Assembly: GCA_032718475.1 (NCBI GenBank)
Contig: JAUCBJ010005099.1
Coordinates: 13,937 to 77,936 of the forward strand
DNA from: Nemertoderma westbladi
Lineage: Eukaryota; Animalia; Xenacoelomorpha
Reading direction: 5' to 3'
DNA: 64,000 nucleotides
Position 1 is the first letter of the stretch, and each line of letters opens with the position of its first letter. The notes under the pieces are model-generated. The model saw nothing but the letters and a program-made list of their open reading frames with translations, was not told the DNA's origin and did not search any database. Shown here one piece after another: positions 27,601-64,000 of the stretch. The position numbers and the translations under genes are program-made.

Positions 27601-28108
27601 GACGAAGGTGACTCACGGGCGAAGGTGACTCACGGACGAAGGTGGCTCACGGACGAAAGTGACTCACGGACGAAGGTGACTCACGGACGAAGGTGGCTCA
27701 CGGACGAAGGTGACTCACGGACGAAGGTGACTCACGGGCGAAGGTGACACACGGACGAAGGTGGCTCACGGACGAAAGTGACTCACGGACGAAGGTGACT
27801 CACGTACGAAGGTGGCTCACGGACGAAGGTGACTCACAGTCGAAGGTGGCTCACGGACGAAAGTGACTCACGGACGAAGGGGACTCACGGACGAAGCTGA
27901 CTCACGGACGATGGTGACTCACGGACGAAGGTGACTCACGGACGAAGGTGACTCACGGACGAAGGGGACTCACGGACGAAGGTGGCTCACGGACGAAGTT
28001 GACTCACGGACGAAGGTGGCTCACGGACGAAGGTGGCTCACGGACGAAGGTGGCTCACGGAGATGGTGTCTCACGGGCGAAGGTGGCTCACGGTCGGAGG
28101 TGACTCAT
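21617..28108. repeat. 17-bp satellite (GGTGACTCACGGACGAA)n, about 6.5 kb and about 380 copies, with higher-order duplications
   Basis: Direct tandem periodicity. Rare variant units recur (GTGCCTCACAGTCGTAGG at about 22360 and 25026; GAGTTACTCACGGGCCATGG at about 23681 and 25838). Confidence 0.98.
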
Positions 28109-40075: not shown

Positions 40076-41470
40076 GAGCAGCTTGGTCTAGTGGTGATAT
40101 TCCTAGTCTTTAAATCAGGAAGCCCTGGTTCGATCCCTAGATGGGGCAACACTGTTTGGGCACAGTGCGTTAATAGCTGCAGCCTAGCCCAACCCTGGCT
40201 ATTATCTTTAACTGCTCGATAAAAATGGGAACAAAGGCAACTTGGGAAACAGATTGTAAGGGTTTACTGTAGAAGATCACCCATGCTGGTGAACAGGCAT
40301 TCCTTTAGGAACCAGATTTGAAGGGTTTACTGTGGAAGGTCACCCATGGTGGTGAACAGTCATTCCTCTAGGAACCAGATTTGAAGGGTTTACTGTCGAA
40401 GATCACCCATGGTGATGAACAGTTATTCCTTTTTAGGAAGCAGAATTGAAGGGTTTACTGTGGAAGATCACCCATGGTGGTGAACATGTATATATTCCTT
40501 TAGGAAGCAGAGTTGAAGGGTTTACTGTAGAAGATCACCCATGGTGGTGAACAGGCATTCCTTTAGGGAACAGATTGGAACGGTTTACTGTGGAAGATCA
40601 CCCATGGTGGCGAACAGGTATTCCTTTAGAAAGCAGAGTGGAAGAGTTTACTGTGGAAAATCACTCATGGTGGTGAACATGAATTCCTTTAGGGAACAGA
40701 GTGGAAGGGTTTACTGTGGAAGATCATCCATGGTGGTGAACAGGCATTCCTTTAGGAAACAGTGGAAGGGTTTACTGTGGAAGATCACCCATGGTGGTGA
40801 ACGGGCATTCCTTTAGGGAACAGAGTGGAAAGGTTTACTGTGGAAGATCACCCATGGTGGTGAACGGGCATTCCTTTAGGGAACAGAGTGGAAGGGTTTA
40901 CTGTGGAAGATTACCCATGGTGGTGAACGGGCATTCGTTTAGGGAACAGAGTGGACGGATTTACTGTGGAAGATCACCCATGGTGGTGAACAGGCATTCC
41001 TTTAGGGAACAGAGTGGAAGGGTTTACTGTGGTAGATCACTCATGGTGGTGAACAGGCATTCCTTTAGGAAACAGATTGGAAGGATTTACTGTGGAAGAT
41101 CACCCATGGTGGTGAACAGGCATTCCTTTAGGAAACAGAGTGGAAGGGTTTACTGTGGAAGATCACCCATGGTGGTGAACAGGTATTCCTTTAGAAAACA
41201 GAGTGGAAGGGTTTACTGTGGAAGATCACTCATAGTGGTGAACAGGCATTCCTTTAGGAAGGGTTTACTGTGGAAGATCACTCATGGTGGTGAACATGAA
41301 TTCCTTTAGGGAACAGAACGGAAGGGTTTACTGTGGAAGATCACTCATGGTGGTGAACAGGCATTCCTTTAGGAAACAGATTGGAAGGGTTTACTGTGGA
41401 AGATCATGCATGCTGGTGTTGGTGAACAGGAATTCCTAGGCTTAACCAGCCTAAAATATTCTCCCATTCA
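40076..41470 (+). mobile_element. tRNA-derived SINE with an internally amplified body
   Basis: A box TGGTCTAGTGG (about 40085), B box GGTTCGATCCC (about 40127), a body running into a tandem array, and a short CATTCATT tail. Confidence 0.7.
40245..41430. repeat. 63-bp minisatellite, about 18-19 copies
   Basis: Unit GGAAGGGTTTACTGTGGAAGATCACCCATGGTGGTGAACAGGCATTCCTTTAGGGAACAGAGT. Confidence 0.95.
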
Positions 41471-42439: not shown

Positions 42440-43694
42440 TGTTCGCGCTTTTGAAGACCTTTAGCAGTTTAACCTGCCAAATTGATATGTCTTTTAGTTA
42501 ATTAAAACCACTTTAGCATACGACAATAATTTATGCTAATACGCAAAACATTAGCCGAAGTCAGCCCATGCGCGATCATTCACCCGATGGATCTACACCC
42601 GGGAGACTGAATTCGGATGCTTGAATTGTATTATTACAGTGTAAGGTTGCAGTGTATACCTAATGTATTATTCGATAGATCGTTAATAATTAATCTCTGA
42701 CAGATATTATTGGCTTTCGGGAAATATTAACAGTTCCTTTAGGACGTGGCGCTTTATCTATTTAAACAGAACTAAGACTTATACTAAACGCAACGATACT
42801 GCTTATGATTAAAGTATAAAACGTATTCTTTAGGAAATACTTTGTTACCAATCACAATCATACACACTATTCTGCCGACAGTCAGTACATTTGATCACAC
42901 ATAAAGAGAGCAGTAATTGACTCACGTAGGGTCTGCTAAATAACATTGGATTCAATACACACCACATTAATATAAATCGCAATTGTTATGTATAACCGGT
43001 CTCTCTAACCTGTAGTGTTATCAAGAAAATTGGGAATTGGGTGATTTATCCGTATTATCCAAATAGCAATATTTCCATCAACAAATATTTACAATTAATA
43101 ACTGACGGTAAAATAACAGTACAAACAATATGATTAATGAGTTAGTTAAGTAAGGTGAGATGAGTGATTTAAGTCAGTGAGTTCGTTTCGTTAGGTAACA
43201 GTTTATACTTTCGATAATTCAAGCAGTTTACGGTACAGCAGTATCTATCCAAAAATGCCGGTGTTTCTGGCTTAGACAGCAATAACAACAAAGTATCAAC
43301 AAAAAAACAGTAAGACTGAACACTCTCCTTATGATCGGCAGAAAAGCTACACGTCGACAGGAAAAACCGCCCTGATTGGCCCAAGCCAAACAAAGAACCA
43401 CGCGGCCAATGGCTGTTTCCATGTCAGCAACCAGCTGCTAGATGTCGTAATATGAATCATCACGGCTAAGCTGTGAAAGGTGGTTGGTGCATTACAAGTT
43501 TTTGTCTTACCATGTCCGCTAAAACACGTATATAGCAGAATGATTTTTATGTCCGTTAAAACACCTGTAAAGGTACCTTGCGGGCGAGGGGAATATATAT
43601 ACAGTTAGAAAACCTTTTTTAGAGTATTCCAGCGCCTGGGGGGGAACTGGCCAGCAAAGGCAAACGTATCAGTTATCCCACAAAAGCTTTTACA
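42440..43694 (-). repeat. 3' LTR of element 2
   Basis: Direct repeat of 53319-54590. Minus strand reads TGTAAAAGC...GCGCGAACA. Confidence 0.95.
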
Positions 43695-43703
43695 CCGCTC
43701 CCA
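43695..43703 (-). other. Polypurine tract of element 2
   Basis: Minus strand TGGGAGCGG directly abuts the TG of the 3' LTR. Confidence 0.7.
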
Positions 43704-43797: not shown

Positions 43798-45223
43798 TTA
43801 CGCAGTTTTTTTTGAAGCTAGTAAGAGTCCTTTTCTCTTTGGGGCGAGCCACTTTACTAGGAGGGCTATAACTCCTGGGTGAAGGGTGCAATATGATTGC
43901 ATCAGAAGGTATGGGATTGCGATCGGTATATCCGCCGGTCGAAGTACCGGGTTGATTGACCTCAACGTCCGGGGAGAGGGTCTAACGGCTTTGAGAGCTC
44001 GTTTCAAGACAGCCGCTCTTACGGGTCCTGTACGAGTGGTCTGCACGAGGGCCGTGGGTGGACCATAGGTAGTTAGAAACTTCCTTGGTTTAATGGTTCT
44101 TTCCAACTCGCGTTCGCGGGCTCGGTACTCGTAAGGCCGTCGATATACTTCCTGTAACTCAGGGTGTGAGTTAACAAACAATTATCCATAGTCCGGATCC
44201 TGACGGATATGATTGATTAAGTTATAGGAATGAAGGTCGCTAGGATTAACACTCTTGAGAAATTTGCGTACGAATTTGGTTGAAATACATTCTCCGACGC
44301 GCTTCAGTAGCTCGTAACTTGATATGCGTGATTTCTGTTCAACCGAAGCGAATAGATAAGGATGTAACGCATAAACTCCTTCGTAAGCGCGTCCGGGATA
44401 ATAGCGATGGCGCGAATCACAATATAAATCAGCGTTCGCTTCCCAAGCTCTGATATAACGTAGTACAATCATTTCATCTACGCTCTCTAAATCATGGTTA
44501 AAGGGACAATCAAAGCTGGCATGTCCTTTTAATTGACAATGATGGCATTGAGTCATAAATTGGGGGCAGACAGCAAAAATGTGCAAATTATTAAGCCGAC
44601 AATATGCACAATAGATTTCCATCGACGGTTGTTCGTGGAAATAGGAACAGAGATCGTTGGTATCCATAGACGTAATATGGTCTCTCGATGCGCACAGCCG
44701 ACAACGTCGTCTAGAAACATAATTAGCATGGCGATAATCATACGCAGTAAGACACTGAGGACCTTGATACCATTCCAATATGTAGTCGCTATCGCTACTC
44801 CGAGACGTGGGAGGCTGAATCTCCTCAGATTCTAGACATATTGGTTCGTCTTCCCAGTCTGTTACGAATAGAATTTTCGTGATCTATTCTCGTTTTATCG
44901 TTACGACGCCGCTGGGTATGATATTTAAATAGAACCATTTCCCTTTCGGTGTCTACATCGTCCGTATCATGTAAATCGATAGGATGGCCGGTAGTTAAGA
45001 AGTCCATATACGTACCATTACGATGCGTATAGCGAGCGGTTAATTTTCGATAGTCCAATTCACGCGTAAGTTGCTCTTGGGACATCGGCGGTTCGATATA
45101 ATGACCATCATCCTCCGTAATAGTCGGATCGGCTTCACCGCGTATCAAGCTATCCACAAACGCTTGTAAAGGTAGAGTATATCGCTCCCTGATACCAAGG
45201 TCATCTTCTATCAATTCCGTCAT
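43798..45223 (-). pseudogene. Accessory ORF of element 2 (about 475 aa reconstructed), Cys/His zinc-knuckle-like protein broken by one frameshift and one stop
   Basis: 44182-44778 and 43798-44181 are in the same frame, separated by a single TAA. That frame is open upstream to 44883 and overlaps 44825-45223. Motifs: CRLCASRDH...C, CAYCRLNNLHIFAVCP, CHHCQLKGHASFDCP. Confidence 0.7.
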
Positions 45224-46841
45224 ATTTGCTATCTGAGTTTGTTAATATCAATATAAGTTAATATTTTAGGTAAGCGGGCGTCGCTTCCTACTCGGCCTTT
45301 TGCCCCCGGACAGTGGGTTTCTCAGCGCCGATGTACCGCTGTCGCAGTGTTTACGCCAACATGTAGCACAGCACGACAACGATAACCGGCACAAGTCCCA
45401 CCACTGTCCGTCCCAAAGGCTTGAATCCACTTGAGGTTATCTCGGTAGAGTTAGGGCTATTTTACAATTGCGATTAGCTACTGTAAACACACTTTAGTAG
45501 TAACATTCACCTATAAACGCACAAATTCCATACAATCATTACTTACTGCACACATGCATGCCATTTGTCCGTTAGTCAGTGTCTTCCAGAATGTCACGTA
45601 TTTACTATGTATCCTTGGATACTAATAGTGCGCTATGTATACTCTTATGCTACGCAATGGGGCAAGCCTTTTATTGTTCCCTTAACTTGCTTCTAATTCT
45701 AGCGTGGGTGTTGCCATGGTGACATTATGGAAAACTAGCGGTAGAATTAGGGCAATCCTCATGCATACAGATCTGGGATGTTATTTAATAGTAATTCTTT
45801 AATTGTCAATATCCTCTTTATGCATGATTTTATAAATTTTATCGGCTATTGACTATATGCTGGAGATTCTCACACTCTAATACACTCAATATGAATCTCC
45901 GCTCCCATGATCTATTAATTACTGGAATTTTGGGAATGTTATAAATTGCACAAAATGACAATTTATGAAATTCATTTAAATATGAATTTAATTTATTCCC
46001 GTGAATTTTATTATTTGATGTTAAATTGACATAAATTTTATTCCAGAGCAAGTCTGGGGACATAAGATCCTTAATTCTATGAAATTTGTCTTTTAAGAGT
46101 ATCGGTAAGTGCTACGATATCTTAATCGACTAGAATTGTTAACGGATCTGAATTTTAAAGATTTTAATAAATATTAAATTAATATTTAGGATGGGCACCG
46201 ATTTATTCCAGAACTTGTCTGGGGACGTTAACCACTGATTCTAGAATTTGTCTTTCAAGTATATCGGTGGGTGCCACGATATCTTAATCGACTAGAATTA
46301 CAGATGGTCAAAAGTTTAACAGATTTATTTGCGATTGACGCTACTGTTAGAGGGACATCACGCTACTATATGTATTATTTGTTATAAGGTAGAAGAGCAA
46401 TATCGCACGAAGCAATGTCAGTGTGAAGAGGCAAGTCGTTTCCAAGGTCTACCCAGAGCTTGGTTTAGCCGAGACACGAGGATCTGAACTTTGCATTCCT
46501 AATACTCTGCCTACCAATAATACTTAAATATAGTAGTGGCTTTACCGTACTTTAAGAAGTACTGACATGTCATCTTACTATAGTCTCGCATTTATAATAT
46601 AATACGGACAGTAAGGAAAGAGAAAATAATTACTTCTTGCCGTCGCACTAAATATATATTATAAGTAATTATGTACGTAATAAACACTAATATATTGCAC
46701 TAATCTACTAACATTCTAAAATAACATTTTACTAAATAGAATTAAATAAAAACGATTATAATAAAGTACATAATAAAGTTCGCATATAAAATGTAATAAA
46801 ATAGATAAAATAATATAGTCATACACCCACTCCATATATAA

Positions 46842-49800
46842 TTACGTTATGGAGTCCCTAGATCTTTGTCGAATTAGGGAAGTGGTCGTAGGAAGAGTAT
46901 CCTGCCTTCCATGGTTTCCGGACAGTTTTCGGTCTCTTTCCAGTAAACCTAAGCGACCAGCTGGGCGATTAGGCTGTCGTGTTACTTCCGCCGCTCCCTT
47001 GGCCTGTCTAATCTCCTCAGTGGTAAGATGAGGAGGCCATTCATCTTCTTCTTTACTTAGGGAGTCGGGTCCACCTAACCAGCCGGGAGTATCTATCCGT
47101 TCTTGAGGAGTTGCTCTTCTGGAATCGATGTCGGCTGGATTAATCGTCCCAAGGCAATGTCTCCATTGATCTACATTGGAGTTAATATCGTCATTATCTG
47201 AGGAGTATGGTGTTCCCTCAGTTGGATCGTCCACATCACTGCTCTCCACTTCCCCCTTTACTTGGTATACCTGTGGTTGAGGTAATCTCTCTTTGAGAGT
47301 TCTACGGGAAGGGCCAGTGAAGTACCAACCTACTCTAGTTCTTACCGCATAGGTTTGCAGTGGCTGCGGTTGAGCAGGCCGTTTCTCCAATGGCTCGAGC
47401 GCCTCATGCGCGTTTTGGCCGATGATTATTTGCACTCCAGGATAATCTGTCTGGAATCGAGGTATCTTAAGATGTTGGATGCTCTCATCCTCGTCCCAAC
47501 TATAAAGGTCTGCTTGGTTAGTAGCGAAGTTCTTTATAGCCACCATTTTTACTGACCTTATACTTTGTGCTCCTAATTTATCCTGGGGGGTGGACAACGC
47601 ACCTACATAGTAATCTGCCGTTATGGTAGATTTCCAAACCTGCATAATTCCTGACATATTCAATTTAGTCCGGAACTTGGGTTGTCCAGCAAAGATATCT
47701 TCGGCTAGTTCTTGATCGATGAATGTTCCTGTGCTGCCGGAGTCAAGTAGGGCGTTCACTATGTAACTCTTGTTGGGACCATGAACTCGAACTTGCACTA
47801 CAGGAAATTCTCTTATTCCTATGTTGGAAGTTGGAACTTTCCAAGATGGTTGTTTGTCAAAAGGAGTTGGAGTAAACTCGTCAGTGTCCTTTTCATCCGT
47901 AAGTGCTCGATACACTGTGGTATTTATTAGATAACAGGATTCGTTGGCATCGGAGAATTCGTCTGTATAGAATCCTTCCCACTCAGAACCTTGGTCAGTG
48001 TCGTTCACATCACTGAATTGGACATGTAGTTCGGGCTCACTTACCTGACTCGGGTTGTCTCGTTCGAACTCACTGTGTAACAAGATGTGATGTTTCGCGC
48101 CACACTTTGCACACTTTGCGTCGGAGTAACAGGTTCGCCGTTGGTGTCCTGATCTGAGGCAATTATAGCATAACCGCTTATTCCACAGGACTGTACGTCT
48201 GTCTACAGGGGATTTCTTTAGAAATTCAGCACACGCACTCAAACGGTGAGGCCCGTCGCACAGCGCACATTTTGGTTTGATGTTACTCACCTTAACTTGG
48301 TTAACGTTCTGCACTCTCGTTCTTTCTTCGGGCTTTCTTCCGTGAATTCTCTTAGGAGACGTAGGAGGAGTTGTTGTTACCTGTTCTCTCCTGTCACTGG
48401 TTCGAGACTTGTATTTACTTACGTCTTTATAGGTCTTGTTGTCATAGTAAGATTTTGCTGTGTCTTTCCCGCTGTCCTCTTCTTGAGAAGCTTGGCTTTC
48501 GCCGTCGTCAGTATAACACACTGGTATTATCCTTCTCCTAGAATCGGGTTTCTCACTTACCTTATTTTCCGATGTTTTCTCTCTGGCCTGCCTTATGAGT
48601 TGTAATTTTACTTCACTATCTAAGAAAGACATGAGATCAGCCATGGTAGGACTTCGTCGTTGTTGTTCATTCATGTACAACACTTTCTTGTCCCAGCGTG
48701 TACATACTCCACCCTTTGGTAAAGTAGAGACTACGGCTCCAATAACCATGGAACTCTGGTATTCGTGCGACTTACCTAACCAGTCCAGTTGTCTACAGAT
48801 CTCTTGTATTTCATCGGAAAATTCTATAATCCCACTACTAAGGAAGTGTCGGGGGGCTACCAATTTTGTATACAAATACTTAGCTATGTTATCTTTGTTA
48901 CCATACCTGATGTTTAATGTATCCCAAACTTGTCTTAATCCATCTGGATGTCCAATAAACTTTAACGCCATTAACTTGGGAGGTCCTTCCAAACACTTGA
49001 TGAGGAATCTAAGTTTCTCTCCGTTAGATAGTACAGAGTTCTGTATGCTATCTTTGTAATATTCGTTGAAAGGTAACCATTTCATCTCATCCCCATTGAA
49101 TTTGACGATCTCTCCCACTTTGACCGCTTGGCGGGCTTCTGTTCTAGCCATCTGACGCGTAAAGCTTTCTTGGGCCATCGTGTTATTTAATATCGAATTA
49201 TCGGTATACAAATTTCTCGGATCATTATCAGGTCTATAGGGAATATCATTAATAACAGGTCTATAATCACCCTTAATAGGGTTTGCTATAGGAGTTTCAA
49301 CTTCACTAGCAGTATAGATGCGTGTAGGCTCCACACCTTGCGCATGTGATACTTCAGACCTAACGGGTTGACACAATGTTACAGGGGGCATTGGTATGCC
49401 TTTTTGTATATTGACTAATTTGTCGCGTTCTAGCGCGATACTTTGCTGCACTTCTTGCAACTCTGCTCTACTTTCCCTCACTGTTCCCTTAAGTTGGTGG
49501 ACAGTCTCCTGCATCTGTCCTAGCAGGAGATTCATCCCCCGCCGTCCCTCTTCCACCCACTCAACCGCCGAAGCGGGAGTCGCCAACATAGTAGCGGGCT
49601 GACGCGGGACGACGGGAGACAAATTATTGATTTCTCTCTCTGCTATCTGGACAGGGGTGTTTGCATGGGCTGTTCCACCGGGTACAGGCAGTGTAGTGCT
49701 ATGTAAAGGGAATTTAGAGTTAAGCTCTGGAAGTGTAGGGGTCTCTAGCACAGAAGTGACTTTGGGAATTACAGGCCTAATTATTTCAGGTTCATCGACT

Positions 49801-51059
49801 ATAGTAGGGACTTCTGCTTCTGCCGCCGCTGCCTTTCTTTCTGCTTCTGCTTCTGCCGTAGCAGCCGCCTTTTGTTCCTCTATCCTTCTTTTCTTTATTT
49901 GTTCTTCTCGAACTCTAGTGAGACGGAGTTTTTCATCACATTCAGCTTGGTTTGCAGCTAACATTTCGGTATCGATCGCGTCCAATATAAGCTTGGTTCC
50001 TTCACTATTAGGGGAAAGTCCATGTAGCCGTCTCCTCAACTCTTCGTCTCCTAGGAATCGCTGATAGTCGGACAAATAAATGTCGATAGCGTCTCTAGTT
50101 CGCGGTTTCTCGGCGGCCTCTTCGCTTTCCTCTTGAGCAAGGGTGACATCAGTTTGTTCGGAGACATCAGTCGGTTCCTCATAGATTGATCTCTCAGCCA
50201 GCTGGGATTTCCACGGGGCTGTTTCCTGTACTTTGAGATCTACTCGATGTAGCCAAGTTTTGACAGCAACCTGCAGCGACGTGTCCTGTCTTCTTTTGGA
50301 AGTTTCCTCAAAGGCTGAGAGGATTAGTCGAATGCGTAGGGTTCTTTCGCGTATTTGATATAGCAGTTCTTCCTGCTCTTGAGGTCCGTGAGGTTGTCGA
50401 AACAGTTGTTCCTCCAATCGCTCCAAGGATCCGAAGAATCCCTGCACATATCCTGCTGCCGACCTCTTCCAAACAGCTGGATCCATTGTATCTTTTGCCA
50501 CTCCCATCCTGTGTATATCTTCCCAAGTAGCCTCGGACATATCAAACGGAAGTCCGAGTCCGGGAAAGTTCCATTGTGATTCAACAATAGATCTCAATTC
50601 TTCCCTGGCGTATCCCGCGTAATTATCTTGGGTCGCTTGCTTATTCTTCGCCCAGTCGGTTTGATGTTCTTCCACCGCAATGAGTATAGTAGTCAGCACT
50701 GCAGCAGGAAGAGTAAGAAGGGGGTCCGAGTAGACTGTATCAGCCATCTGCACTCCATGTTCGGGAGTCAACTCTACAGTATCCGAACTGCTGGAGCTAT
50801 CCGGTCTCTGGGAAGTAGGTTCTTGACCAAGATGTTGCTGCGATAGGACAGCTGCCTCTTGGTCCCGTTTTACCTGTGCCCGAGTGCCTATGATGGACCT
50901 ATGGTGGACTAGCCTAGGGTCTGATACTACTGGAGGGATGACCTTTTTTACAGTAGGAGGTGAGCCGAACTTCTCTTTTATTCGCTCCACACTCCTATCT
51001 GAATCACAGATAGTGGTCTCGATCAGACTGTCCGACAGGTTTTGCTGAGTGTCAGACAT
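46842..51059 (-). CDS. BEL/Pao Gag-protease polyprotein, 1405 aa, with short fused RNase H and integrase C-terminal remnants
   Basis: Gag core KFNGDEMKW...KLRFL, triple Cys-His (CALCDGPHRLSAC, CYNCLRSGHQRRTC, CAKCGAKHHILLH), protease ALLDSGS...TRVGW, then QWRHCLGTINPADIDSR...WLGGP...WP and RPAGRLGLLE. No YVDD and no integrase DDE. Confidence 0.95.
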   Translation of the reverse strand: MSDTQQNLSDSLIETTICDSDRSVERIKEKFGSPPTVKKVIPPVVSDPRLVHHRSIIGTRAQVKRDQEAAVLSQQHLGQEPTSQRPDSSSSSDTVELTPEHGVQMADTVYSDPLLTLPAAVLTTILIAVEEHQTDWAKNKQATQDNYAGYAREELRSIVESQWNFPGLGLPFDMSEATWEDIHRMGVAKDTMDPAVWKRSAAGYVQGFFGSLERLEEQLFRQPHGPQEQEELLYQIRERTLRIRLILSAFEETSKRRQDTSLQVAVKTWLHRVDLKVQETAPWKSQLAERSIYEEPTDVSEQTDVTLAQEESEEAAEKPRTRDAIDIYLSDYQRFLGDEELRRRLHGLSPNSEGTKLILDAIDTEMLAANQAECDEKLRLTRVREEQIKKRRIEEQKAAATAEAEAERKAAAAEAEVPTIVDEPEIIRPVIPKVTSVLETPTLPELNSKFPLHSTTLPVPGGTAHANTPVQIAEREINNLSPVVPRQPATMLATPASAVEWVEEGRRGMNLLLGQMQETVHQLKGTVRESRAELQEVQQSIALERDKLVNIQKGIPMPPVTLCQPVRSEVSHAQGVEPTRIYTASEVETPIANPIKGDYRPVINDIPYRPDNDPRNLYTDNSILNNTMAQESFTRQMARTEARQAVKVGEIVKFNGDEMKWLPFNEYYKDSIQNSVLSNGEKLRFLIKCLEGPPKLMALKFIGHPDGLRQVWDTLNIRYGNKDNIAKYLYTKLVAPRHFLSSGIIEFSDEIQEICRQLDWLGKSHEYQSSMVIGAVVSTLPKGGVCTRWDKKVLYMNEQQRRSPTMADLMSFLDSEVKLQLIRQAREKTSENKVSEKPDSRRRIIPVCYTDDGESQASQEEDSGKDTAKSYYDNKTYKDVSKYKSRTSDRREQVTTTPPTSPKRIHGRKPEERTRVQNVNQVKVSNIKPKCALCDGPHRLSACAEFLKKSPVDRRTVLWNKRLCYNCLRSGHQRRTCYSDAKCAKCGAKHHILLHSEFERDNPSQVSEPELHVQFSDVNDTDQGSEWEGFYTDEFSDANESCYLINTTVYRALTDEKDTDEFTPTPFDKQPSWKVPTSNIGIREFPVVQVRVHGPNKSYIVNALLDSGSTGTFIDQELAEDIFAGQPKFRTKLNMSGIMQVWKSTITADYYVGALSTPQDKLGAQSIRSVKMVAIKNFATNQADLYSWDEDESIQHLKIPRFQTDYPGVQIIIGQNAHEALEPLEKRPAQPQPLQTYAVRTRVGWYFTGPSRRTLKERLPQPQVYQVKGEVESSDVDDPTEGTPYSSDNDDINSNVDQWRHCLGTINPADIDSRRATPQERIDTPGWLGGPDSLSKEEDEWPPHLTTEEIRQAKGAAEVTRQPNRPAGRLGLLERDRKLSGNHGRQDTLPTTTSLIRQRSRDSIT

Positions 51060-52950: not shown

Positions 52951-53305
52951 GGTCACACGCCTTCTGCTCAATATTAGCCTACTAGTAAATAAAACCGACA
53001 GAAATAAGTAGAATCTCAAATAAAAAATCAGGGCGGCCGTTCCCTGATTAAGTACCAAGACCTACCGGTATACAACAATCAGATTCGAATAATACTAAAT
53101 GTACTTGTACAGCAGTACCGGTACCGGTGATGACAGTTAGGCCTACTGACCTACAAAGTACCGGTTCAGTTTTACCAGTCACTACGGTAGTTTGCAACCT
53201 TATTGCCTACTGCAATAAGATTATAAACTGTTACTGTTCGTCAGAACAGTATTAAACTGTATTTAATGCCTACACTTGCAACCTTATTGCCTCCTGCAAT
53301 AAGAT

Positions 53306-53318
53306 TATAAACTGTTAC
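53306..53318 (-). promoter_or_regulatory. Non-tRNA primer-binding site of element 2 (GTAACAGTTTATA), complementary to its own LTR
   Basis: Directly follows the 5' LTR and is the perfect complement of LTR positions 54097-54109 and 43195-43207. A second copy lies at 53222-53234. Confidence 0.75.
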
Positions 53319-54590
53319 TGTTCGCGCTTTTGAAGACCTTTAGCAGTTTAACCTGCCAAAATTTATATGTCTTTTAGTTAATTAAAACCACTTTAGCATA
53401 CGACAATAATTTATGCTAATACGCAAAACACTAGCCGAAGTCAGCCCATGCGCGATCATTCACCCGATGGATCTACACCCGGGAGACTGAATTCGGATGC
53501 TTGAATTGTATTATTACAGTGTAAGGTTGCAGTGTATACCTAATGTATTATTCGATAGATCGTTAATAATTAATCTCTGACAGATATTATTGGCTTTCGG
53601 GAAATATTAACAGTTCCTTTAGGACGTGGTGCTTTATCTATTTAAACAGAACTAAGACTTATACTAAACGCAACGATACTGCTTATGATTAAAGTATAAA
53701 ACGTATTCTTTAGGAAATACTTTGTTACCAATCACAATCATACACACTATTCTGCCGCCAGTCAGTACATTTGATCACACATAAAGAGAGCAGTAATTGA
53801 CTCACGTAGGGTCTGCTAAATAACATTGGATTCAATACACACCACATTAATATAAATCGCAATTGTTATATATAGCCGGTCTCTCTAACCTGTAGTGTTA
53901 TCAAGAAAATTGGGAATTGGGTGATTTATCCGTATTATCCAAATAGCAATATTTCCATCAACAAATATTTACAATTAATAACTGACGGTAAAATAACAGT
54001 ACAAACAATATGATCAATGCAATTAAATTAAGTGAGTATGTTAATTAAGATTGATCAATTAGTTAAGATTCGTTAGTTAGTTAGTGATTTATTGAGGTAA
54101 CAGTTTATACTTTCGATAATTCAAGCAGTTTACTAGAGTTCTTCCCAAAAGGCCGGTGTTTCTGGCTTAGACAGCAATAACAACAAAGTAACAAGAAAAA
54201 ACAGTAAGACTGAACACTCTCCTTATGATCGACTAAAAAGCTACACGTCGACAGGAAAAACCGCCCTGATTGGCCCAAGCCAAACAAAGAACCACGCGTC
54301 CAATGGCTGTTTCCATGTCAGCAACCAGCTGCTAGATGTCGTAATATGAATCATCACGGCTAAGCTGTGAAAGGTAGTTGGTGCATTACAGGTTTTTTGC
54401 CTTACCATGTCCGCCAAAACACGTATATAGCAGAATGATTTTTATGTCCGTTAAAACACCTGTAAAGGTACCTTGCGGGCGAGGGGAATATATATACAGT
54501 TAGAGAACCTTTTTAGAGTATTCCAGCGCCTGTGGGGAAACTGGATTGCGAAGCAAAAGGGGCCAGTTATATCCCACAGAAGCTTTTACA
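53319..54590 (-). repeat. 5' LTR of element 2
   Basis: Direct repeat of 42440-43694. Confidence 0.95.
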
Positions 54591-56154
54591 GCCATTTTAG
54601 AGTAAAAGAGCCCCAAAACCCCGCTTTTTGAGGATTCTTGTGTATAAAATGGCCGAAGCTCAATTTCAATCAACATTGCTTGATGGCACTGGATGTAACA
54701 ATGATTTGAACCGATTCATCAAAAAATTTAACACTGAATAAAACATAGATTGAAAAATTGTTAAAGGTACAGTATATTGAATAGCCTTTGTTTGGGACAA
54801 AAATAGGCCTAATAACAAACATTTGGTGTGACTAAATTAAATTTTAGTTACTCCTCTTCACTTAAGCACCGATAAAATCTAAATATTACATTATTCAGCA
54901 AATGATTGGTATAGGTGGAGGTGAGGGGGGTAGTGAGTAGTGGATATTGTGCACTCGACACATGTAGGGCCTAGTCTATTGAAATTTTAATGTTTTTAAA
55001 TATACAACTAAATCAATCCTGGTTTTCTAATTAGGGGTGGGGGAGGTGGGGTGGGGGTGTACAAATCCAAGGTCGCTTCTCAAAGTAAATTCTCAAACTG
55101 AATGTTCCCTTCATAATGAACAGATGCATGCAAATTATACAATAATTTATTATACCGCCACAGCTATAAGTTCAGTTACAACTTACAAGGTTTATAGATT
55201 TCATGTTTATTAAATGGAAAATCTTAAAATAACGCAATTTTCATGGTATTTGCTCAATAATAGCCGAATAACGCAAAATTTTGGAAATAGCGCAAGGAGG
55301 GAGCCCTGGTCGGTCATGGATCCACGTGATCATATTTATCGATTAATAATACTTTTATTTTCATTCATATTTAACTCTTTTTAATGACGAATTTTTGAAG
55401 GAATAAGGATGTGGGCATGGCATCAACCTAAAAATGGTTTAATAGGAAGGAAGAGTAAAAATTCGCTTAATTCGATATACCGGTAGTTAAACGGAATAGT
55501 CAGGCAGGTTTATATTAAATTTAATCTTGTTTGATGTTCCTACCGTATATTATTCAGTTTTTAATATTCAAATATATTTATTTGATATTTATTATATCAA
55601 TAATTTTTGAAATGGTACTTTTACTTGTGGGTATAATATTAGGTACTTTTACTTGTGGGTATAATATTAGTTTTGTATATTTACATTTACTATTTCTCGG
55701 GTTATTGTTGATTTCTAGTGTGGCATTCAATGTATTGTGCTCAATCGCTAATTATTGTAGAATATTGTGCTCATTCGCAAATTATTGTAGAATATTGTGC
55801 TCATCATTCGCTTATTATGTTATTGTTACTGACTGACTGTGTATAATGGGTAGTGGATAATGAACTGAAAGTAATTAGTTTCAATTAATTCATATTTGTA
55901 TTTTCTAATTTTCTTTCTTTGCTAATATTTACGTGGATCTATGAAATTACAAAAAAAGTCACAAGATGTTCCTCGGGAGAATTTAAATTTTATTGGAATT
56001 GTCATTTTTGCATCTGCGCTTAATCTATAGGTTAGGCTTTCTCAGAAGGATCGCGATAAGTTCCAACGCGACGGAAAATGTACCTGAAGGAGTCATAATA
56101 TCGCAGTTAATCTTTAATTTTGATCAGATGATGTCGATTAATGTGTGAAAATAG

Positions 56155-58550
56155 CATTGAACATCTACCGCTCCCCATTGAACATCTACCGCTCCCCATT
56201 GAACATCTACCGCTGCCCCATTGAACATCTACCGCTCCCCCATTGAACATCTACCGCTCCCCCATTGAACATCTACCGCCCCCCCCCCATTGAACATCTA
56301 CCGCTCCCCCATTGAACATCTACCGCTCCCCCATTGAACATCTACCGCTCCCCCATTGAACATCTACCGCTCCCCATTGAACATCTACCGCTCCCCATTG
56401 AACATCTACCGCTGCCCCATTGAACATCTACCGCTCCCCCATTGAACATCTACCGCTCCCCCATTGAACATCTACCGCTCCCCCATTGAACATCTACCGC
56501 TCCCCCATTGAACATCTACCGCTCCCCATTGAACATCTACCGCTCCCCATTGAACATCTACCGCCCCCCCATTGAACATCTACCGCTCCCCATTGAACAT
56601 CTACCGCTCCCCCATTGAACATCTACCGCTCCCCCATTGAACATCTACCGCGCCCCCATTGAACATCTACCGCTCCCCATTGAACATCTACCGCTCCCCA
56701 TTGAACATCTACCGCTCCCCCATTGAACATCTACCGCTCCCCATTGAACATCTACCGCTCCCCATTGAACATCTACCGCTCCCCCATTGAACATCTACCG
56801 CTCCCCATTGAACATCTACCGCTCCCCATTGAACATCTACCGCTCCCCCATTGAACATCTACCGCTCCCCATTGAACATCTACCGCTCCCCATTGAACAT
56901 CTACCGCGCCCCCATTGAACATCTACCGCTCCCCATTGAACATCTACCGCTCCCCATTGAACATCTACCGCTCCCCATTGAACATCTACCGCTCCCCCAT
57001 TGAACATCTACCGCGCCCCCATTGAACATCTACCGCTCCCCATTGAACATCTACCGCTCCCCATTGAACATCTACCGCTCCCCCATTGAACATCTACCGC
57101 TCCCCATTGAACATCTACCGCTCCCCATTGAACATCTACCGCTCCCCATTGAACATCTACCGCTCCCCCATTGAACATCTACCGCTCCCCATTGAACATC
57201 TACCGCTCCCCATTGAACATCTGCCGCTCCCCATTGAACATCTACCGCTCTCCCATTGAACATCTACCGCTCCCCCATTGAACATTTACCGCTCCCCCAT
57301 TGAACATCTACCGCTCCCCATTGAACATCTACCGCTCCCCATTGAACATCTACCGCTCCCCATTGAACATCTACCACTCCCCATTGAACATCTACCGCTC
57401 CCCATTGAACATCTACCGCTCCCCATTGAACATCTACCGCTCCCCCATTGAACATCTACCGCTCCCCCATTGAACATTTACCGCTCCCCCATTGAACATC
57501 TACCGCTCCCCCATTGAACATCTACCGCTCCCCCATTGAACATCTACCGCTCCCCATTGAACATCTACCGCTCCCCATTGAACATCTACCACTCCCCATT
57601 GAACATCTACCGCTCCCCATTGAACATCTACCGCTCCCCATTGAACATCTACCGCTCCCCCATTGAACATCTACCGCTCCCCATTGAACATCTACCGCTC
57701 CCCCATTGAACATCTACCGCTCCCCATTGAACATCTACCGCTCCCCCATTGAACATCTACCGCTCCCCCATTGAACATCTACCGCGCCCCCATTGAACAT
57801 CTACCGCTCCCCATTGAACATCTACCGCTCCCCCATTGAACATCTACCGCTCCCCATTGAACATCTACCGCTCCCCATTGAACATCTACCGCTCCCCCAT
57901 TGAACATATACCGCTCCCCCATTGAACATCTACCGCTCCCCATTGAACATCTACCGCTCCCCATTGAACATCTACCGCTCCCCATTGAACATCTACCGCT
58001 CCCCATTGAACATCTACCACTCCCCATTGAACATCTACCGCTCCCCCATTGAACATCTACCGCTCCCCCATTGAACATCTACCGCTCCCCATTGAACATC
58101 TACCGCTCCCCCAATGAACATCTACCGCTCCCCCATTGAACATCTACCGCTCCCCCATTGAACATCTACCGCTCCCCATTGAACATCTACCGCTCCCCAT
58201 TGAACATCTACCGCTCCCCATTGAACATCTACCGCTCCCCCATTGAACATCTACCGCTCCCCCATTGAACATCTACCGCGCCCCCATTGAACATCTACCG
58301 CTCCCCATTGAACATCTACCGCTCCCCCATTGAACATCTACCGCTCCCCATTGAACATCTACCGCTCCCCATTGAACATCTACCGCTCCCCCATTGAACA
58401 TATACCGCTCCCCCATTGAACATCTACCGCTCCCCATTGAACATCTACCGCTCCCCATTGAACATCTACCGCTCCCCATTGAACATCTACCGCTCCCCAT
58501 TGAACATCTACCGCTCCCCATTGAACATCTACCGCTCCCCCATTGAACAT
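56155..58550. repeat. 22/23-bp satellite (CATTGAACATCTACCGCTCCCC[C])n, about 105 copies, ending at the insertion point of element 3
   Basis: Direct tandem periodicity. The array stops mid-unit (CATTGAACAT|TGTACG). Confidence 0.98.
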
Positions 58551-59625
58551 TGTACGCAGGCATCTGGGCTCTGTTTAATCGGCCAACAAGCCTAGGGAGG
58601 TTGCGTCATAGCCTTGTTTTGTATCTCCCAATAGAATTTGAGTTAGCCTTGATTTGACCTATCACAGAGTACTGAACTGAAAATTTCCTATCTCACTGCT
58701 CTTTCTCTGTGTTGAACGGGAGCTTCGTGGAATAAGGGAGTTGGTATCCTCGTATAGAGCAGTAGTCACGAGTTTTTCAAAGCCACGAAAGAACGGCTTT
58801 GTAGTGTTTTATGCTTTCTGCTTTTTAGCTCAACACTAGGAGGTTTAATTATAAGGACATATATCCTTTAACTGACCTGGCGGCTGACCAAACGCACCTG
58901 ATGACTGACTGATTGTCTTAACTCAAAACAAACTGGCACGATTGATCTGTCAATACTGTGTACTGCTATTTGTTGTCGGTTATTCATTATATTTGTTGAT
59001 GAATTATTATATTGGAATAACGAGAAATAACCCCGACACCCAATATTCTTGATATACCGAAGGTAAGAGAGAAAGGTTACCAATAACGATTGTGACTTAT
59101 GTTAAAGTGGTTTGAAGTGAATCTAATGTTATTTGATAGACCCTACATGAGTCAGCCTGTGTTCCTTTTATATGTGACTAAAATCAGTAAAGATTGGCAG
59201 ATTAGTGTGCAGTATTGTGCAGCATTGTGTGCGAGTGAGTCTGTTAAAGAAGCATTTCCTAAAGAATGTGCCATATATGTGAAATATAATTAAACCATAT
59301 CGTTGTGAGTAGTTTAAGTCATAACTCTGTTTATATAGATAAAGCGCCACGTCCTAAAGGAACTGTTAATATTCCCGAAGGTGAATAATATTGTCAGAGA
59401 TTATATAATACTGTCAGTCGAATAATACATTAGGCTTACATAGCAACAAAATTAAACCGTCGAACCCAATCTCCCGGGAATATCCAGCGGGTGAATGGTC
59501 GCGCACGGATTGGTTTCGACTAGTGTAGTGAATCAAATACTTGTCATAGGCTAAAAAGCGATTTAATATCTAGAAGACATCTTAATTTGGCGGGTTAAAC
59601 TGCCAAAGGTCTGAAAGCGCGAACA
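58551..59625 (+). repeat. 5' LTR of element 3
   Basis: TGTACGC...AAAGCGCGAACA. About 58950-59625 is homologous to the element 2 LTR; the first 300-400 bp are unrelated. Confidence 0.85.
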
Positions 59626-59637
59626 TTAAAGGATATA
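59626..59637 (+). promoter_or_regulatory. Non-tRNA primer-binding site of element 3 (TTAAAGGATATA), complementary to its own LTR
   Basis: Perfect reverse complement of TATATCCTTTAA at 58860-58871. Confidence 0.75.
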
Positions 59638-61808
59638 GCTTCTTTGTTGCAGTAAGCAATAAAGTTGAAAGTACCGGTCAACCGGTAAACCTGAACCGGT
59701 ACATTCTGTAGGTCAGTAGGCCTAGCTGTCCTAACCGGTACTTCCGTATAAGTACACTAGTATTATTCGATTTGATTGTTGCATACCGGTAGGCTGTTTA
59801 GGGGATTAGGGATTGATCACCCCTTATACCTTTATATGGTTTACTTATTTCTGTCAAGTTTTATTTATTTGTAGGACAGTATTGAACAGAAGGCGTGTAA
59901 GCCTGATCAGATTGTACAGACGATTTGTAGGCTGAGCTGTTGTCTGATTGCTGTTAAGTCCGAACGAATTGCAGTGTGTGTAGATCACCTGTCCGATTAA
60001 GTACGGTTAGGAAGTAGGGGCAGCGAACGCTGTAAGGTAAACCCCCAACTAAAGAATAAGTCGCACTACTGGGTTAGAGCGCATACTCCCTAATCATTTC
60101 GGAGTCTGCATGTCCTGTAGTTTATTTAGGCTTGAGAGTAGTCTGCCATCGTTTGGTCTGTACTTTGTTTGTGTAAGTCTGTACGGGTAGCGTATAATTT
60201 TATTTAGATAATTTGTAGGCTGGATAGTTGTCTGGCTGTTATTAGGTCTGAACGGATTGCCGCGTGTGTAGATCATCTGTCCGATTAAGTACGGTTAGGC
60301 AGTAGGGGCAGCGAACGCTGTAAGGTAAACCCCCAACTAAAGAATAAGTCGCACTACTGGGTTAGAGCGCATACTCCCTAATCATTTCGGAGTCTGCATA
60401 TACCGTAGTTTGTTTAGGCTTGATAGTAGTCTGTCGGTGTTCGGTCTGTATTTTGTTTGAGTAGTTTGTACGCGTAGCGTAATATTTATTATTCAGAGTT
60501 TATGCGATTATCCGCAACATTCATTCCCCAAGTTTGTTCCTACAGTAATTGTGTTTGTTATACATACCGCTATAGTTAAATTAACCCCGGTACTACACGG
60601 GCTGCTCGGCGTAGGTAAAGACTGGTGATTTTGTGCATCGGTCACTCCAGCAGATGCCGTGGTTCTTTTAGCTGTTCAAGTATATTTAACTACTGATTAT
60701 CTGTTGTACAAGTACTCGTACCTAATTTAGGGTTTAGTGTACAGTACTTTCCGAAGTAATTAGTGTAGGCATTATATTTGTGTTGTAAAGTGGTTGATAG
60801 GCACATTCGATTAGCTCTATTAACTTCTAGGTAGGAACACTCCGTGATACATAACGTAGAACCTATAGCGATACGGCTATAGGTCGTCAGGCGGTGGTAT
60901 TTTCCTATCTAGACAACGCAGTGTATTTACTACTACTTATTATTTCAAATACTGTAGTACCCTGTCCGTTGTAATAACCAGTTTTCTAACCCTTTGTTAG
61001 GCTGGTTTGTAGACTTCTTGTAAAATTACCCTAAAAATTCGTATTTTGTGTTTTTTGTAAATTTTTGTGTTTATTTAGAGATTGTAATCTCACCCGAATT
61101 GTACGTAATTTGTAGTATTAAGTAACTTAGGTAAATTAGTATTATTTGTTTTAGTGTCCTATACGTAACACTTCACTAAAAGCGCACTGCTTTGTGTAGT
61201 GATTACCCCGGAAATAATAACATTTATTTCAAACATTGACTAAACCCATTAAAACGGGTATATATATATTATAAATCAAATCTAACGATTTATAAATAGT
61301 AGGCCTACCATATAACAACTAGGTCTCCATATCAGTTGGACTACTGCTCAAATAACGGTAATAAAGTAAGTAAAGTAACAAAGTAACCCTAAAGTAACAG
61401 AAATTCAATTATTTGAAATAATTGATATACCGGTATTTACGATAGGCCTATTATCTTTATTTCTATAAATCTAGGCTGAAATTATACCGGTACTTGTAAT
61501 TAATTCTATTTCAGAATTATATATCCTACAAACTGTAAGCTGTATACCGGTATTCCAGATAAGCCTATTATATATTATATATATTTGTGCTAAATTTATA
61601 CCGGTATTCTGTGATAAACCTAGTCTGTGATAATACTTATATAGTTATATATACTATAAGTATACCGGTATTCTAATATATTATATATATATCACGCTAC
61701 ACTGAGTAGCCGTACCGGTAATTAATTATTAGGCTAACAGTTAATACTGAGTTACTAGACTTGCTCAAACTGTAATACAGCAGTAGACATTCAACGGTAT
61801 ACATAGTC

Positions 61809-64000
61809 ATGTCTGATACTAAGCAGAACCTGTCAGACAGTATATTAGATGTAACTATCTGCGACTCAGATAGAGACGTACAACCGTCTGGTCGTAAATT
61901 CAGTTCACCTCCCACTGTGAGGAAGGTCATCCCTCCAGTAGTAATAACAGAACCTAGGCTAGTCCAACATCGTAGGTCTATCATAGGCACTCGAGCTCAG
62001 GTCAAGCGGGACCAAGAAGCGGCGGAACAGCAACAACCCGCGAGTCAAGAACTTATTCCTCAGCGGCCCAGCAGCTCCAGTGGTGAGGATACTGTAGAGC
62101 TGACACCCGAGAGCGGAGCAGAGAGGACGGATGCGGTTTATACGAATCCCCTCCTCATCCTTCCTGCAGCCGTACTCAGCGGGTTATTGATCGCGGTGGA
62201 AGAACACCAGATCGATTGGGCGAGGAGTCAACGATCCACTAGAGATCGTTATGCGGGGTACACGAGGGAAGAATTGAAGTCTATTGTCGAGTCGCAATGG
62301 AACTTCCCCGGACCCGGACTCCCGTTTGATTTATCAGAAGCTGTCTGGGAAGACATACACCGGATGGGAGTAGCCAAGGAAACCATCGATCCAGCTGTAT
62401 GGAAGAGGTCCGCAGCCGGATACGTACAGGGATTCTTCAGCTCTATGGAGCGAGTAGAAAGACAACTATTTAAACAACCTCAAGGACCTCAAGAGCAGGA
62501 ACAGCTGCTTTATCAAGTTAGAGAAAGAGTTCTGCGAATTAGGCTAATCTTATCCGCCTTTGAGGAGGCTTCTAAAAGAAGACAAGACACGTCGTTGCAA
62601 GTTGCCGTAAAGACTTGGCTTCAAAGGGTGAGACGCCAGGTTCAAGGAGCAGCTCAGTGGAAAGTTCAGTTGGAGGAGCGCTCAACACAAGGAGAATCGA
62701 CAGACGCTACTTTCTCCCAAGTGGAAAGTGAAGCGACGGCAGAGAAACCGCATAAGAAGGATGCCATTGATATCTATCTGTCAGACTATCAGCGTTTTGT
62801 GGGAGATGAAGAGTTGAGGAGAAGGCTAGAGGGACTTAGCCCTAATAGCGAAGGAGCCAAACTTGTGTTAGATGCGATTGATGTGGATAGGTTAGCGGCG
62901 AACCAAGCTAAATTCGAGGAACAACTCCGCATCGCTAGAGAAAAGGAAGAGCAAGTAAGGAAAAAACGTATAGAAGATAGAAAGACAGCAGCAGCAGCAG
63001 TGGCAGCGGCAGAAGCGGAAGGAAAAGCGGCAGCGGCAGAAGCAGAAGGAAAAGCGGCAGCGGCAGAAGCGGAAAGAAAGGCAGCAGAGGCAGCGGCAGA
63101 AAAGAAAGCGGCAGCGGCAGAAGCACAAAGGAAAGCGGCAGCGGCAGAAGCGGAAAGAAAGATAGCAGTGGCAGAAGCAGAACGGAGGGCATCTGAAGAG
63201 ACAACCCAACTAGAGCTGGAAAATCTTCAAGAGAGGCAAGATAACTTTAATAAACAGTTAACAGCTAGTAATATGCAGATGATGAATCGATCTACTCCCA
63301 AACGACAAGGTTATACATCATCTGAGGAAGGCGATACCACCGACGCTGAAGGCGGAGGAAATCGATCCCGCCTAAGCAGACGTAAAAGAACATTCCACCG
63401 TCAGAAATTGCCTGATTTGCCTCCAGCTGTTAGAAGGCAACTAAATAACACCAACTTAGAGAGTACAGAACCCACAGACCAAATAATTACAATAGAAAGA
63501 CTCCCTACTATAGTAGATGAGCCTGAAATAAGTAGGCCTGTTCTTGAAATCACCCCTTCGGTAATAGACACACCTGGGCTCCCTGAAGCTACCTATAAAT
63601 TCCCTCTGCATAGCACTAAGCTACCTGTGCCCCGTAGAACTGCCCAGGAGACAGTTCAGGTCCTGGACCCCGAGCGAAATATTCCAAATTTGTCGCCCGT
63701 TGTCCCTCGTCTGCCCGCTACGACGTTGGCGGATCCCGTTTTGGCGGTTGATTGGGTAGACGAGAGACGGCGGGGGATGGATATTCTCCTAGGAGAGATG
63801 AGGGAGAATCGGAAACGCTCTTCCCAACAGGTCCGAGAGTTGGAAGGGACTGTCCAACATTTAAAAGGAACGGTGAGGGAAAGTAGGTTAGAGTTGCAAG
63901 AAGTGCAGCAAAGTATCGCGTTAGAACGCGATAGATTAGTAAATTTACAAAAGGGTATACCACCACCCCCTGTAACAATGTGTCAACCCGTTAGGTCTGA
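61809..64000 (+). CDS. Gag N-terminal region of element 3 (about 730 codons, open to the window end, not in the ORF track)
   Basis: ATG at 61809 gives MSDTKQNLSDSILDVTICDSD... Spot checks stay in frame through HRMGVAKETIDPAVWKRSAAGYVQGFF and ...PPVTMCQPVRS, homologous to 46842-51059. Confidence 0.9.
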   Translation, partial: MSDTKQNLSDSILDVTICDSDRDVQPSGRKFSSPPTVRKVIPPVVITEPRLVQHRRSIIGTRAQVKRDQEAAEQQQPASQELIPQRPSSSSGEDTVELTPESGAERTDAVYTNPLLILPAAVLSGLLIAVEEHQIDWARSQRSTRDRYAGYTREELKSIVESQWNFPGPGLPFDLSEAVWEDIHRMGVAKETIDPAVWKRSAAGYVQGFFSSMERVERQLFKQPQGPQEQEQLLYQVRERVLRIRLILSAFEEASKRRQDTSLQVAVKTWLQRVRRQVQGAAQWKVQLEERSTQGESTDATFSQVESEATAEKPHKKDAIDIYLSDYQRFVGDEELRRRLEGLSPNSEGAKLVLDAIDVDRLAANQAKFEEQLRIAREKEEQVRKKRIEDRKTAAAAVAAAEAEGKAAAAEAEGKAAAAEAERKAAEAAAEKKAAAAEAQRKAAAAEAERKIAVAEAERRASEETTQLELENLQERQDNFNKQLTASNMQMMNRSTPKRQGYTSSEEGDTTDAEGGGNRSRLSRRKRTFHRQKLPDLPPAVRRQLNNTNLESTEPTDQIITIERLPTIVDEPEISRPVLEITPSVIDTPGLPEATYKFPLHSTKLPVPRRTAQETVQVLDPERNIPNLSPVVPRLPATTLADPVLAVDWVDERRRGMDILLGEMRENRKRSSQQVRELEGTVQHLKGTVRESRLELQEVQQSIALERDRLVNLQKGIPPPPVTMCQPVRS

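Follow-up and report, generated by a model that had tools for sequence, protein, structure and literature searches.

A candidate internal self-primer in the long terminal repeats of BEL/Pao retrotransposons from Nemertoderma westbladi

The DNA analysed here is a stretch of 64,000 nucleotides (nt) from the xenacoelomorph Nemertoderma westbladi (assembly GCA_032718475.1, contig JAUCBJ010005099.1, positions 13,937 to 77,936), hereafter called the window, and our subject is the priming of reverse transcription in the BEL/Pao long terminal repeat (LTR) retrotransposons that it carries, designated elements 1, 2 and 3. In elements 2 and 3, the sequence that directly follows the 5′ LTR, where a primer-binding site (PBS) for a transfer RNA (tRNA) would be expected, is an exact complement of a short segment within the element's own LTR. 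We consider it very probable that these elements encode their primer in one form or another. With distinctly more reserve, we also favour a specific form of this proposal, in which elements 2 and 3 prime with an internal segment of their own LTR rather than with a tRNA, the segment would be freed by a cut on its 3′ side, and element 2 would depend on a helper.

Complementarity between the LTR and the sequence behind it

The features that define the match are as follows.

53319-54590, minus strand: 5′ LTR of element 2, 1272 base pairs (bp), TG...CA ends, 93.5% identical to 42440-43694
42440-43694, minus strand: 3′ LTR of element 2, 1255 bp, with a purine-rich tract ahead of it at about 43695-43703
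53306-53318, minus strand: non-tRNA PBS of element 2, 13 nt, directly past the LTR
54097-54109, minus strand: predicted self-primer segment in the 5′ LTR of element 2, 13 nt
43195-43207, minus strand: predicted self-primer segment in the 3′ LTR of element 2, 13 nt, same letters as the 5′ LTR copy
53192-53240, minus strand: duplicate of LTR end, PBS and hairpin in element 2, with a second PBS at 53234-53222, 84 nt downstream
58551-59625, plus strand: 5′ LTR of element 3, start provisional; the 3′ half of the element lies beyond the window
59626-59637, plus strand: non-tRNA PBS of element 3, 12 nt
58860-58871, plus strand: predicted self-primer segment of element 3, 12 nt

The nucleotides at 53318-53306 are the exact reverse complement of both 54109-54097 and 43207-43195, and those at 59626-59637 are the exact reverse complement of 58860-58871. 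All five stretches read just as the original prediction had given them, and its distances from the site to the LTR 3′ end were found again (778 nt in the 5′ LTR and 755 nt in the 3′ LTR of element 2, 754 nt in element 3). The PBS of both elements begins right behind the LTR-terminal CA, and the 3′ end of the would-be primer falls opposite the first post-LTR base, as had been claimed. This exact register at the LTR edge served as the anchor of a chance test with 20,000 dinucleotide shuffles per LTR. A match anchored at the first post-LTR base has a P value of 5e-5 for element 2 and 3e-4 for element 3, and the values are 5.5e-4 and 4.5e-4, respectively, if an offset of 0-5 nt is permitted.

The sites of the two elements differ from each other at 7 of 12 positions when compared ungapped, or at four positions plus one indel, and all of these differences (at least four substitutions and the indel) are matched by the PBS. 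When one LTR is paired with the post-LTR sequence of the other element, the match falls to 5-6 nt at offset 0 and to at most 8 nt at other offsets, a control that upholds the earlier observation of perfect pairing between differing sequences. G-U pairs add no length to either duplex. There is no TGG in the first 19 nt past the LTR of element 2 or element 3, which agrees with the claim that a TGG-type tRNA PBS is lacking, and neither has the 18-nt host-tRNA PBS that the International Committee on Taxonomy of Viruses (ICTV) gives for BEL/Pao. A PBS complementary to RNA from the element's own LTR, with the primer 3′ end at the LTR edge, is the Tf1-type arrangement. The additional tandem duplicate in element 2, over which the depth of contigs from sequencing runs is reduced, possibly arose by slipped plus-strand transfer.

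Three open reading frames (ORFs) place these elements among their relatives.

46842-51059, minus strand: ORF of element 2, 1405 amino acids, encoding Gag (DUF1759, CCHC fingers), protease and a short C-terminal relic of RNase H
61809-63998, plus strand: Gag ORF of element 3, 730 amino acids, still open at the window end
695-8833, minus strand: gag-pol ORF of element 1, a full BEL/Pao element of a family other than that of element 2

These features mark elements 2 and 3 as sister LTR retrotransposons of the BEL/Pao group. Element 2 has a TG...CA pair of LTRs around gag, whereas element 3 has one LTR (the 5′ copy) within the window. The Gag with DUF1759 and CCHC fingers and the protease are of BEL/Pao type (PF03564, E 3.8e-12), and Peptidase_A17 is present in 30 of 30 homologues among the matches listed. 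Element 3 Gag is 73% identical to that of element 2 over 393 amino acids, with 176 changes at third codon positions against 80 and 58 at the other two, a bias which indicates that the gene has been kept under selection. The last ~670 nt of the element 3 LTR are 71% identical to element 2, and the upstream part is not alignable. Reverse transcriptase (RT), RNase H and integrase in BEL/Pao order are found in element 1, which carries Peptidase_A17, integrase zinc-binding and DUF5641 domains within a single ORF, but not in element 2, and the Gag-protease regions of the two are 22% identical. The original prediction that element 2 has no RT or RNase H was borne out for RT and for a catalytic RNase H, but a 47-residue relic of the RNase H C-terminus, corresponding to the last part of the RNase H region of element 1, is fused behind the protease. 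As its ORF reads, element 2 is a non-autonomous derivative that has lost RT and most of RNase H in frame and is without integrase. Two extra sense frames of 138 and 233 amino acids, counted from stop to stop, lie before its 3′ LTR (44182-45241, minus strand), the second of which is rich in CxxC/CCHC motifs and has no Pfam match at 1e-3.

Variants of the family were seen in contigs from four public runs of four studies, where contig depth gives no copy number. Runs X1, X3 and X5, from three studies, are of DNA type, and X6 can only be guessed to be RNA, again as contigs. Bins of about 50 nt around the site differ between the two LTRs of element 2 at 10 of 57, 15 of 50 and 19 of 51 columns, and the 100 nt below the site differ at 34 of 101 columns with the site counted in; the site itself is identical. 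Farther down (690 nt), there are 0-2 differing columns per bin, and no part of the LTR varies more than the sequence flanking the site. A block common to element-2-type copies (54095-54133, minus strand) comprises the site and 24 nt upstream of it, and immediately above this block the two LTRs of element 2 diverge. In X1, X3 and X5, contig depth is level over 54096-54133 and drops sharply past the 3′ end of the site, and the common block ends 2 nt past the site, with joints ending at 54095/54096. No site substitution of at least 1% is listed in these three runs, although variants at contig ends can escape listing. Other post-LTR versions occur in the family as unphased joints and loose ends near 53276-53315. 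X6 alone has a site variant one base shorter, unphased, which is one letter off that run's own PBS variant. No family copies were found in viral or metagenome contigs by DNA-motif scan, or in viral contigs by protein scan.

Right behind the site there is a hypervariable tract with CTAAC/CTGAC/CTCAC-like repeats (54020-54095, 43120-43194 and 58872-58950), and short repeats occupy the same post-site position in two loci of other families (L027 and L048). Another LTR stretch of ~35 nt (53590-53640 and 59330-59380), the one with the highest contig depth, is near-identical between elements 2 and 3.

Related BEL/Pao families and element 1

The original prediction had proposed looking for the same complementarity in other PBS-less BEL/Pao families, and the outcome favours an element-encoded primer. 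An alignment of element 1 and 28 homologues led to 78 BEL/Pao loci from metagenome contigs, eight of which have a 5′ LTR end defined by repeat. At seven of these eight loci, the sequence starting 0-4 nt past the LTR is an own-LTR complement of 11-15 nt, compared with at most 9 nt in cross controls among the same loci, and none of the eight has TGG after the LTR. The complement is contiguous in L048 and L065. In the other five (L016, L027, L030, L041 and L072), a GT-AG intron of 76-186 nt interrupts the site, and the complement forms only when this intron is taken out. The ends of L027 are confirmed by a 5-bp target-site duplication. The eighth locus, L044, reaches 6 nt at the repeat-defined end, or 11 nt if that end is moved 10 nt earlier. 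Three LTRs (L027, L065 and L044) end in TA instead of CA.

A blind scan covered 69 of the 78 loci (nine with less than 400 nt upstream were left out), with reversed and complemented sequences as controls. There are intron-spanning complements of at least 11 nt at 17 loci, compared with 0 and 2 in the controls, and matches of at least 12 nt of any kind at 16 loci, compared with 2 and 4. The 17 positives include the near-duplicates L063/L072 and L044/L046, and some are probably chance hits. The sister loci L004 and L077 have an identical PBS start; an intron splits the primer segment in L004 and is absent from L077 by precise loss. In an RT-RNase H tree of 95 sequences (FastTree, midpoint root), the self-complement signature is spread across a marine-invertebrate clade, with element 1 weakly placed outside it.

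These data dispose of the weakest alternative, which is a chance match in AT-rich sequence: both 12-13-mers are indeed AT-rich and unanchored 11-nt matches are frequent in the controls (14 of 69 and 21 of 69 loci), but the anchored shuffle test, the like position within the LTR in both elements and the recurrence in unrelated families effectively exclude it.

Element 1 offers a further candidate for the same layout.

9631-9641, minus strand: candidate non-tRNA PBS of element 1, 11 nt, followed by a hairpin; the LTR end is not independently defined
10667-10677, minus strand: candidate self-primer segment of element 1, exact complement of 9631-9641, with a loop of 1025 nt

The motif CGAAYA occurs once in the 2.95 kb upstream of element 1 (8850-11800), directly before the candidate PBS, and CGAACA is the LTR terminus in elements 2 and 3. 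An 11-nt complement is reached at five of 1711 positions of element 1, including one behind CGAAYA. This is suggestive of a shared self-complementary layout. An upstream LTR part matching the element 1 3′ LTR (start 574) was looked for and not found. That 3′ LTR also has a 28-nt exact identity (393-420 and 2792-2819) with a low-complexity pol insert between RNase H and integrase. Upstream of the promoter-like region of element 1, at ~11310-11400 (minus strand), there is a piece resembling a tRNA or a short interspersed element, with A-/B-box-like motifs and a T run, on which ARAGORN makes no call.

Proposed origin and release of the primer

In any retroelement of this kind the primer end position sets the LTR end, and any primer must therefore pair at the LTR edge. 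Since the post-LTR sequence follows the element's own LTR and not a fixed host RNA, we infer that the LTR segment primes the minus strand. Transcription would start upstream of the site, such that the segment lies ~90-120 nt inside the transcript. It would then pair with the PBS across ~750 nt, probably aided by another copy of the RNA or by the Gag nucleocapsid. A cut immediately past the segment's 3′ end, probably made by RT/RNase H, would leave a 3′-OH, and DNA synthesis would run through the LTR as far back as the cut. If the primer is itself copied when the plus strand is made, PBS and site would stay matched, and this might, with less certainty, explain why the matching is free of wobble pairs. 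Element 2, being without RT and a catalytic RNase H, would take these enzymes in trans from a helper element. Many relatives would assemble the segment by splicing out an LTR intron, whereas elements 2 and 3 have it whole. Extended to the relatives, the proposal would be that a large animal BEL/Pao branch has dropped tRNA priming for an internal primer from its own RNA, often built by the spliceosome, that elements 1-3 are intron-less, long-loop members, and that the cis signal of element 2 suffices for spread with borrowed enzymes. We lean towards this wider view by only a slight measure.

The position of the start is indicated by promoter motifs. A TATA box is located 148 nt (L016), 135 nt (L048) and 147 nt (L072) above the primer 3′ end, and a start 30 nt below it would put the primer ~105-118 nt inside the RNA. 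Element 2 has the following candidate.

54209-54273, minus strand: candidate promoter of element 2, by motif match only, with CCAAT at 54273-54269 and initiator-like TCAGT at 54213-54209

Counted from the site start, CCAAT is at -164 and TCAGT at -104. These motifs suggest a start ~102 nt upstream of the site and a primer ~115 nt inside the RNA.

The alternative that survives best is that these elements act precisely as Tf1 does. Transcription would begin at the site, the first 11-13 nt would fold onto the PBS, and a single RNase H cut would free the primer. A primer of 12-13 nt is close to Tf1's 11 nt, the site is near the border between the non-alignable upstream and the conserved downstream LTR, both sites begin with TATA and offer a pyrimidine-A start, and an RNA 5′ end would account for where the pairing stops. 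However, neither element 2 nor element 3 has a TATA at -30 from the site, and the motifs of element 2 lie 100-165 nt upstream. Because of this spacing, the TATA spacing in relatives (the site ends 135-148 nt below the box at three loci) and the intron-spanning sites of five of the seven positive relatives, we regard a start at the site as unlikely. The original prediction of Tf1-like self-priming thus divides into two parts. Covariation, the seven of eight relatives and the probable case of element 1 speak for an element-encoded, tRNA-independent primer, but the start sites predicted at 54109 and 58860 are probably incorrect.

Less likely again is an element-encoded primer that comes from elsewhere. 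The site might lie above the start, for example as a TATA box, or a short 5′ LTR transcript might be made, with the primer taken from the copy in the 3′ LTR or supplied in trans by a separate RNA. The element 2 site begins with TATAAA and is followed ~30 nt on by an initiator-like TCACT in the 3′ LTR, the 5′ LTR of element 2 has an AATAAA 16 nt away from the start of the site, and a cis fold over 750 nt is unfavourable. Nevertheless, the element 3 site makes a poor TATA box, those in element 1 and in the relatives do not resemble one, and AATAAA is missing in the element 2 3′ LTR and in element 3.

The last alternative, which we judge improbable, is that a host RNA (a tRNA fragment or another) primes, and that the LTR match, without a role in priming, is a structural pairing or was left behind by template switching. 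The ICTV describes BEL/Pao as primed by host tRNA, half-tRNA priming occurs in some Copia lineages, a fragment of a host tRNA might serve, and the primer:PBS helix is missing from the predicted fold. Against this, TGG is absent in both window elements and all eight relatives, and every duplex starts 0-4 nt from the LTR edge. Moreover, the PBS of each family is different and tracks its own LTR, often only across the exon joint, and one host RNA therefore cannot match them all. ARAGORN finds no tRNA in the window, and Rfam gives seven weak hits there, to AT-rich or simple repeats, with no known ribozyme or tRNA-like primer gene.

Several structures are predicted in RNA from elements 2 and 3, including hairpins near the end of U5 (the unique 5′ region) and behind the PBS.

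53281-53305, minus strand: predicted post-PBS hairpin of element 2, 10 bp
59642-59664, plus strand: predicted post-PBS hairpin of element 3, 9 bp including G-U
53338-53361, minus strand: predicted U5-end hairpin of element 2, with letters different from its element 3 counterpart
59586-59607, plus strand: predicted U5-end hairpin of element 3
53545-53555 with 53095-53085, minus strand: U5:leader match of element 2, 11 nt
59418-59428 with 59760-59770, plus strand: U5:leader match of element 3, 11 nt, letters identical to the element 2 pair

The post-PBS hairpins rank in the top 2-3% of leader windows. The U5-end hairpins have 8-9 predicted bp and are located 20-43 nt ahead of the LTR end (two sequences only); a U5 stem-loop is reportedly needed in Tf1, going by the title of a 1998 study by Lin and Levin. 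The U5:leader pair is invariant between the elements and thus has no support from covariation. Its helix would cross the primer:PBS helix, and such crossing is beyond the model of the folding program. In relatives with short loops (87-216 nt), the primer:PBS helix forms in the best fold of four out of seven.

Candidate splice sites are present within the 750-nt loop, and two splicing schemes were tried for elements 2 and 3 and rejected. As a splice-built or splice-extended primer, only a gain of 2 nt in element 2 turned up, and it depends on a poor GC donor. For an intron-borne primer, the site is followed by repeats that resemble branch points, but element 3 has GG where element 2 has the downstream AG.

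A number of observations weigh against an internal self-primer. In full-length folds of elements 2 and 3, from four start points each, the primer:PBS helix has a pairing probability of 0.0, and forcing it costs 4.6-17.4 kcal/mol. The modelled fold thus counts against spontaneous pairing in cis across 750 nt. In element 3, no promoter motif stands out clearly where one would be expected, and the element 2 site, which begins with TATAAA, could be a TATA box. Only two family copies, elements 2 and 3, are readable in phase. Site variants predicted from PBS variants are absent from the variant tables of the run contigs, which miss variants below 1% of depth, at contig ends or in LTRs with another upstream part. 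BEL/Pao target-site duplications are 5 bp long, and none is found at element 2, where the flanks differ, and hence this element may be a recombinant; despite this, its 5′ LTR, primer site and PBS form one contiguous unit. Element 2 cannot be placed in the RT tree, and the CGAAYA motif of element 1 was picked after the match had been seen. Finally, the start site, splicing, cleavage and RNA-linked complementary DNA are all predictions from sequence.

Elsewhere in the window, there is a host exon of Gemin8 at 13137-13775 on the minus strand (Pfam PF15348, E 9.5e-21). Tandem arrays with units of 17, 21 and 63 nt are located at 21617-28107, 56155-58550 and 40245-41418, respectively, and the array of 21-mers adjoins the start of the element 3 LTR.

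Comparison with known systems

According to the ICTV account of Belpaoviridae, the PBS has 18 nt and binds host tRNA-Arg or tRNA-Gly, the LTRs measure 0.2-1.2 kb, and replication is poorly understood (PMC8742986). The elements here resemble this description in their Gag with DUF1759 and CCHC fingers, their protease and, in element 1, a single ORF that combines the domains Peptidase_A17, integrase zinc-binding and DUF5641. They differ in the lack of a tRNA PBS and, for element 2, in an LTR of 1.27 kb. In keeping with the original prediction, a literature search outside subscription papers, Repbase reports and GyDB pages found no report of self-priming in BEL/Pao. It is not reported in the accessible portions of PMC6934838, PMC3601003, PMC5443660, PMC11042837 and PMC8220671, and the main texts of PMC3118150, PMC554778 and PMC6238403, supplements aside, nowhere mention PBS or tRNA.

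In the portions of the literature available, self-priming has been demonstrated in Tf1, and predictions of it exist for its relatives within Gypsy and for one lineage of plant Copia elements (PMC6317226, PMC4600332, PMC7175516). If the proposal is true, BEL/Pao would be a third superfamily, and tRNA-independent priming would have arisen repeatedly or be ancient. An internal primer would need a way of making and limiting the primer other than the capped 11-mer of Tf1. An intron-split primer would couple reverse transcription to splicing and would let the 5′ LTR differ from the 3′ LTR. The window would contribute an intron-less, long-loop, non-autonomous case. Annotation tools that seek a tRNA PBS would miss or mis-trim such elements.

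Some Copia lineages are primed by half-tRNAs, according to the accessible part of one source (PMC6317226). These elements and fungal GalEa, in which a conserved hairpin replaces the PBS, share with the present ones a non-TGG post-LTR sequence and a hairpin early in the internal region. However, as far as the portions consulted describe them, their site is fixed by a host RNA or comes without a described LTR complement, whereas here it varies by family and tracks the LTR. Closer in kind are the TAR lineage of plant Ty1/copia elements (Houba, Osr-1) and the Tcn1 chromoviruses, for which self-priming was likewise predicted by complementarity alone (PMC6317226, in part). These belong to other superfamilies, and an internal or intron-split primer is not mentioned in the accessible text. 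A tRNA-like primer encoded by the element itself has reportedly been described for Cer elements of nematodes, on which the literature search listed nothing relevant.

The closest likeness is to Tf1, Tf2 and Tj1 of the Tf1/sushi group, which also lack a tRNA PBS and have an own-LTR complement and a duplex of ~11 nt. In Tf1, the available text describes pairing with RNA from its own LTR and RNase H cleavage that frees the primer (PMC7175516, PMC4600332), whereas the elements here are known from their sequence. The Tf1 U5 stem-loop has a possible counterpart in the predicted U5-end hairpins of elements 2 and 3. There are also clear differences. Tf1 primes with the first 11 nt of its mRNA, whereas the primer here is predicted to be internal with a loop of ~750 nt, it spans an LTR intron in the relatives, and element 2 would need enzymes in trans. 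Tf1 is a member of the Ty3/gypsy chromovirus group, and the elements here carry BEL/Pao-type proteins, which places them outside the Tf1/sushi clade. These elements probably represent a new variant of self-priming, Tf1-like in action but of different descent, in a superfamily described as tRNA-primed.

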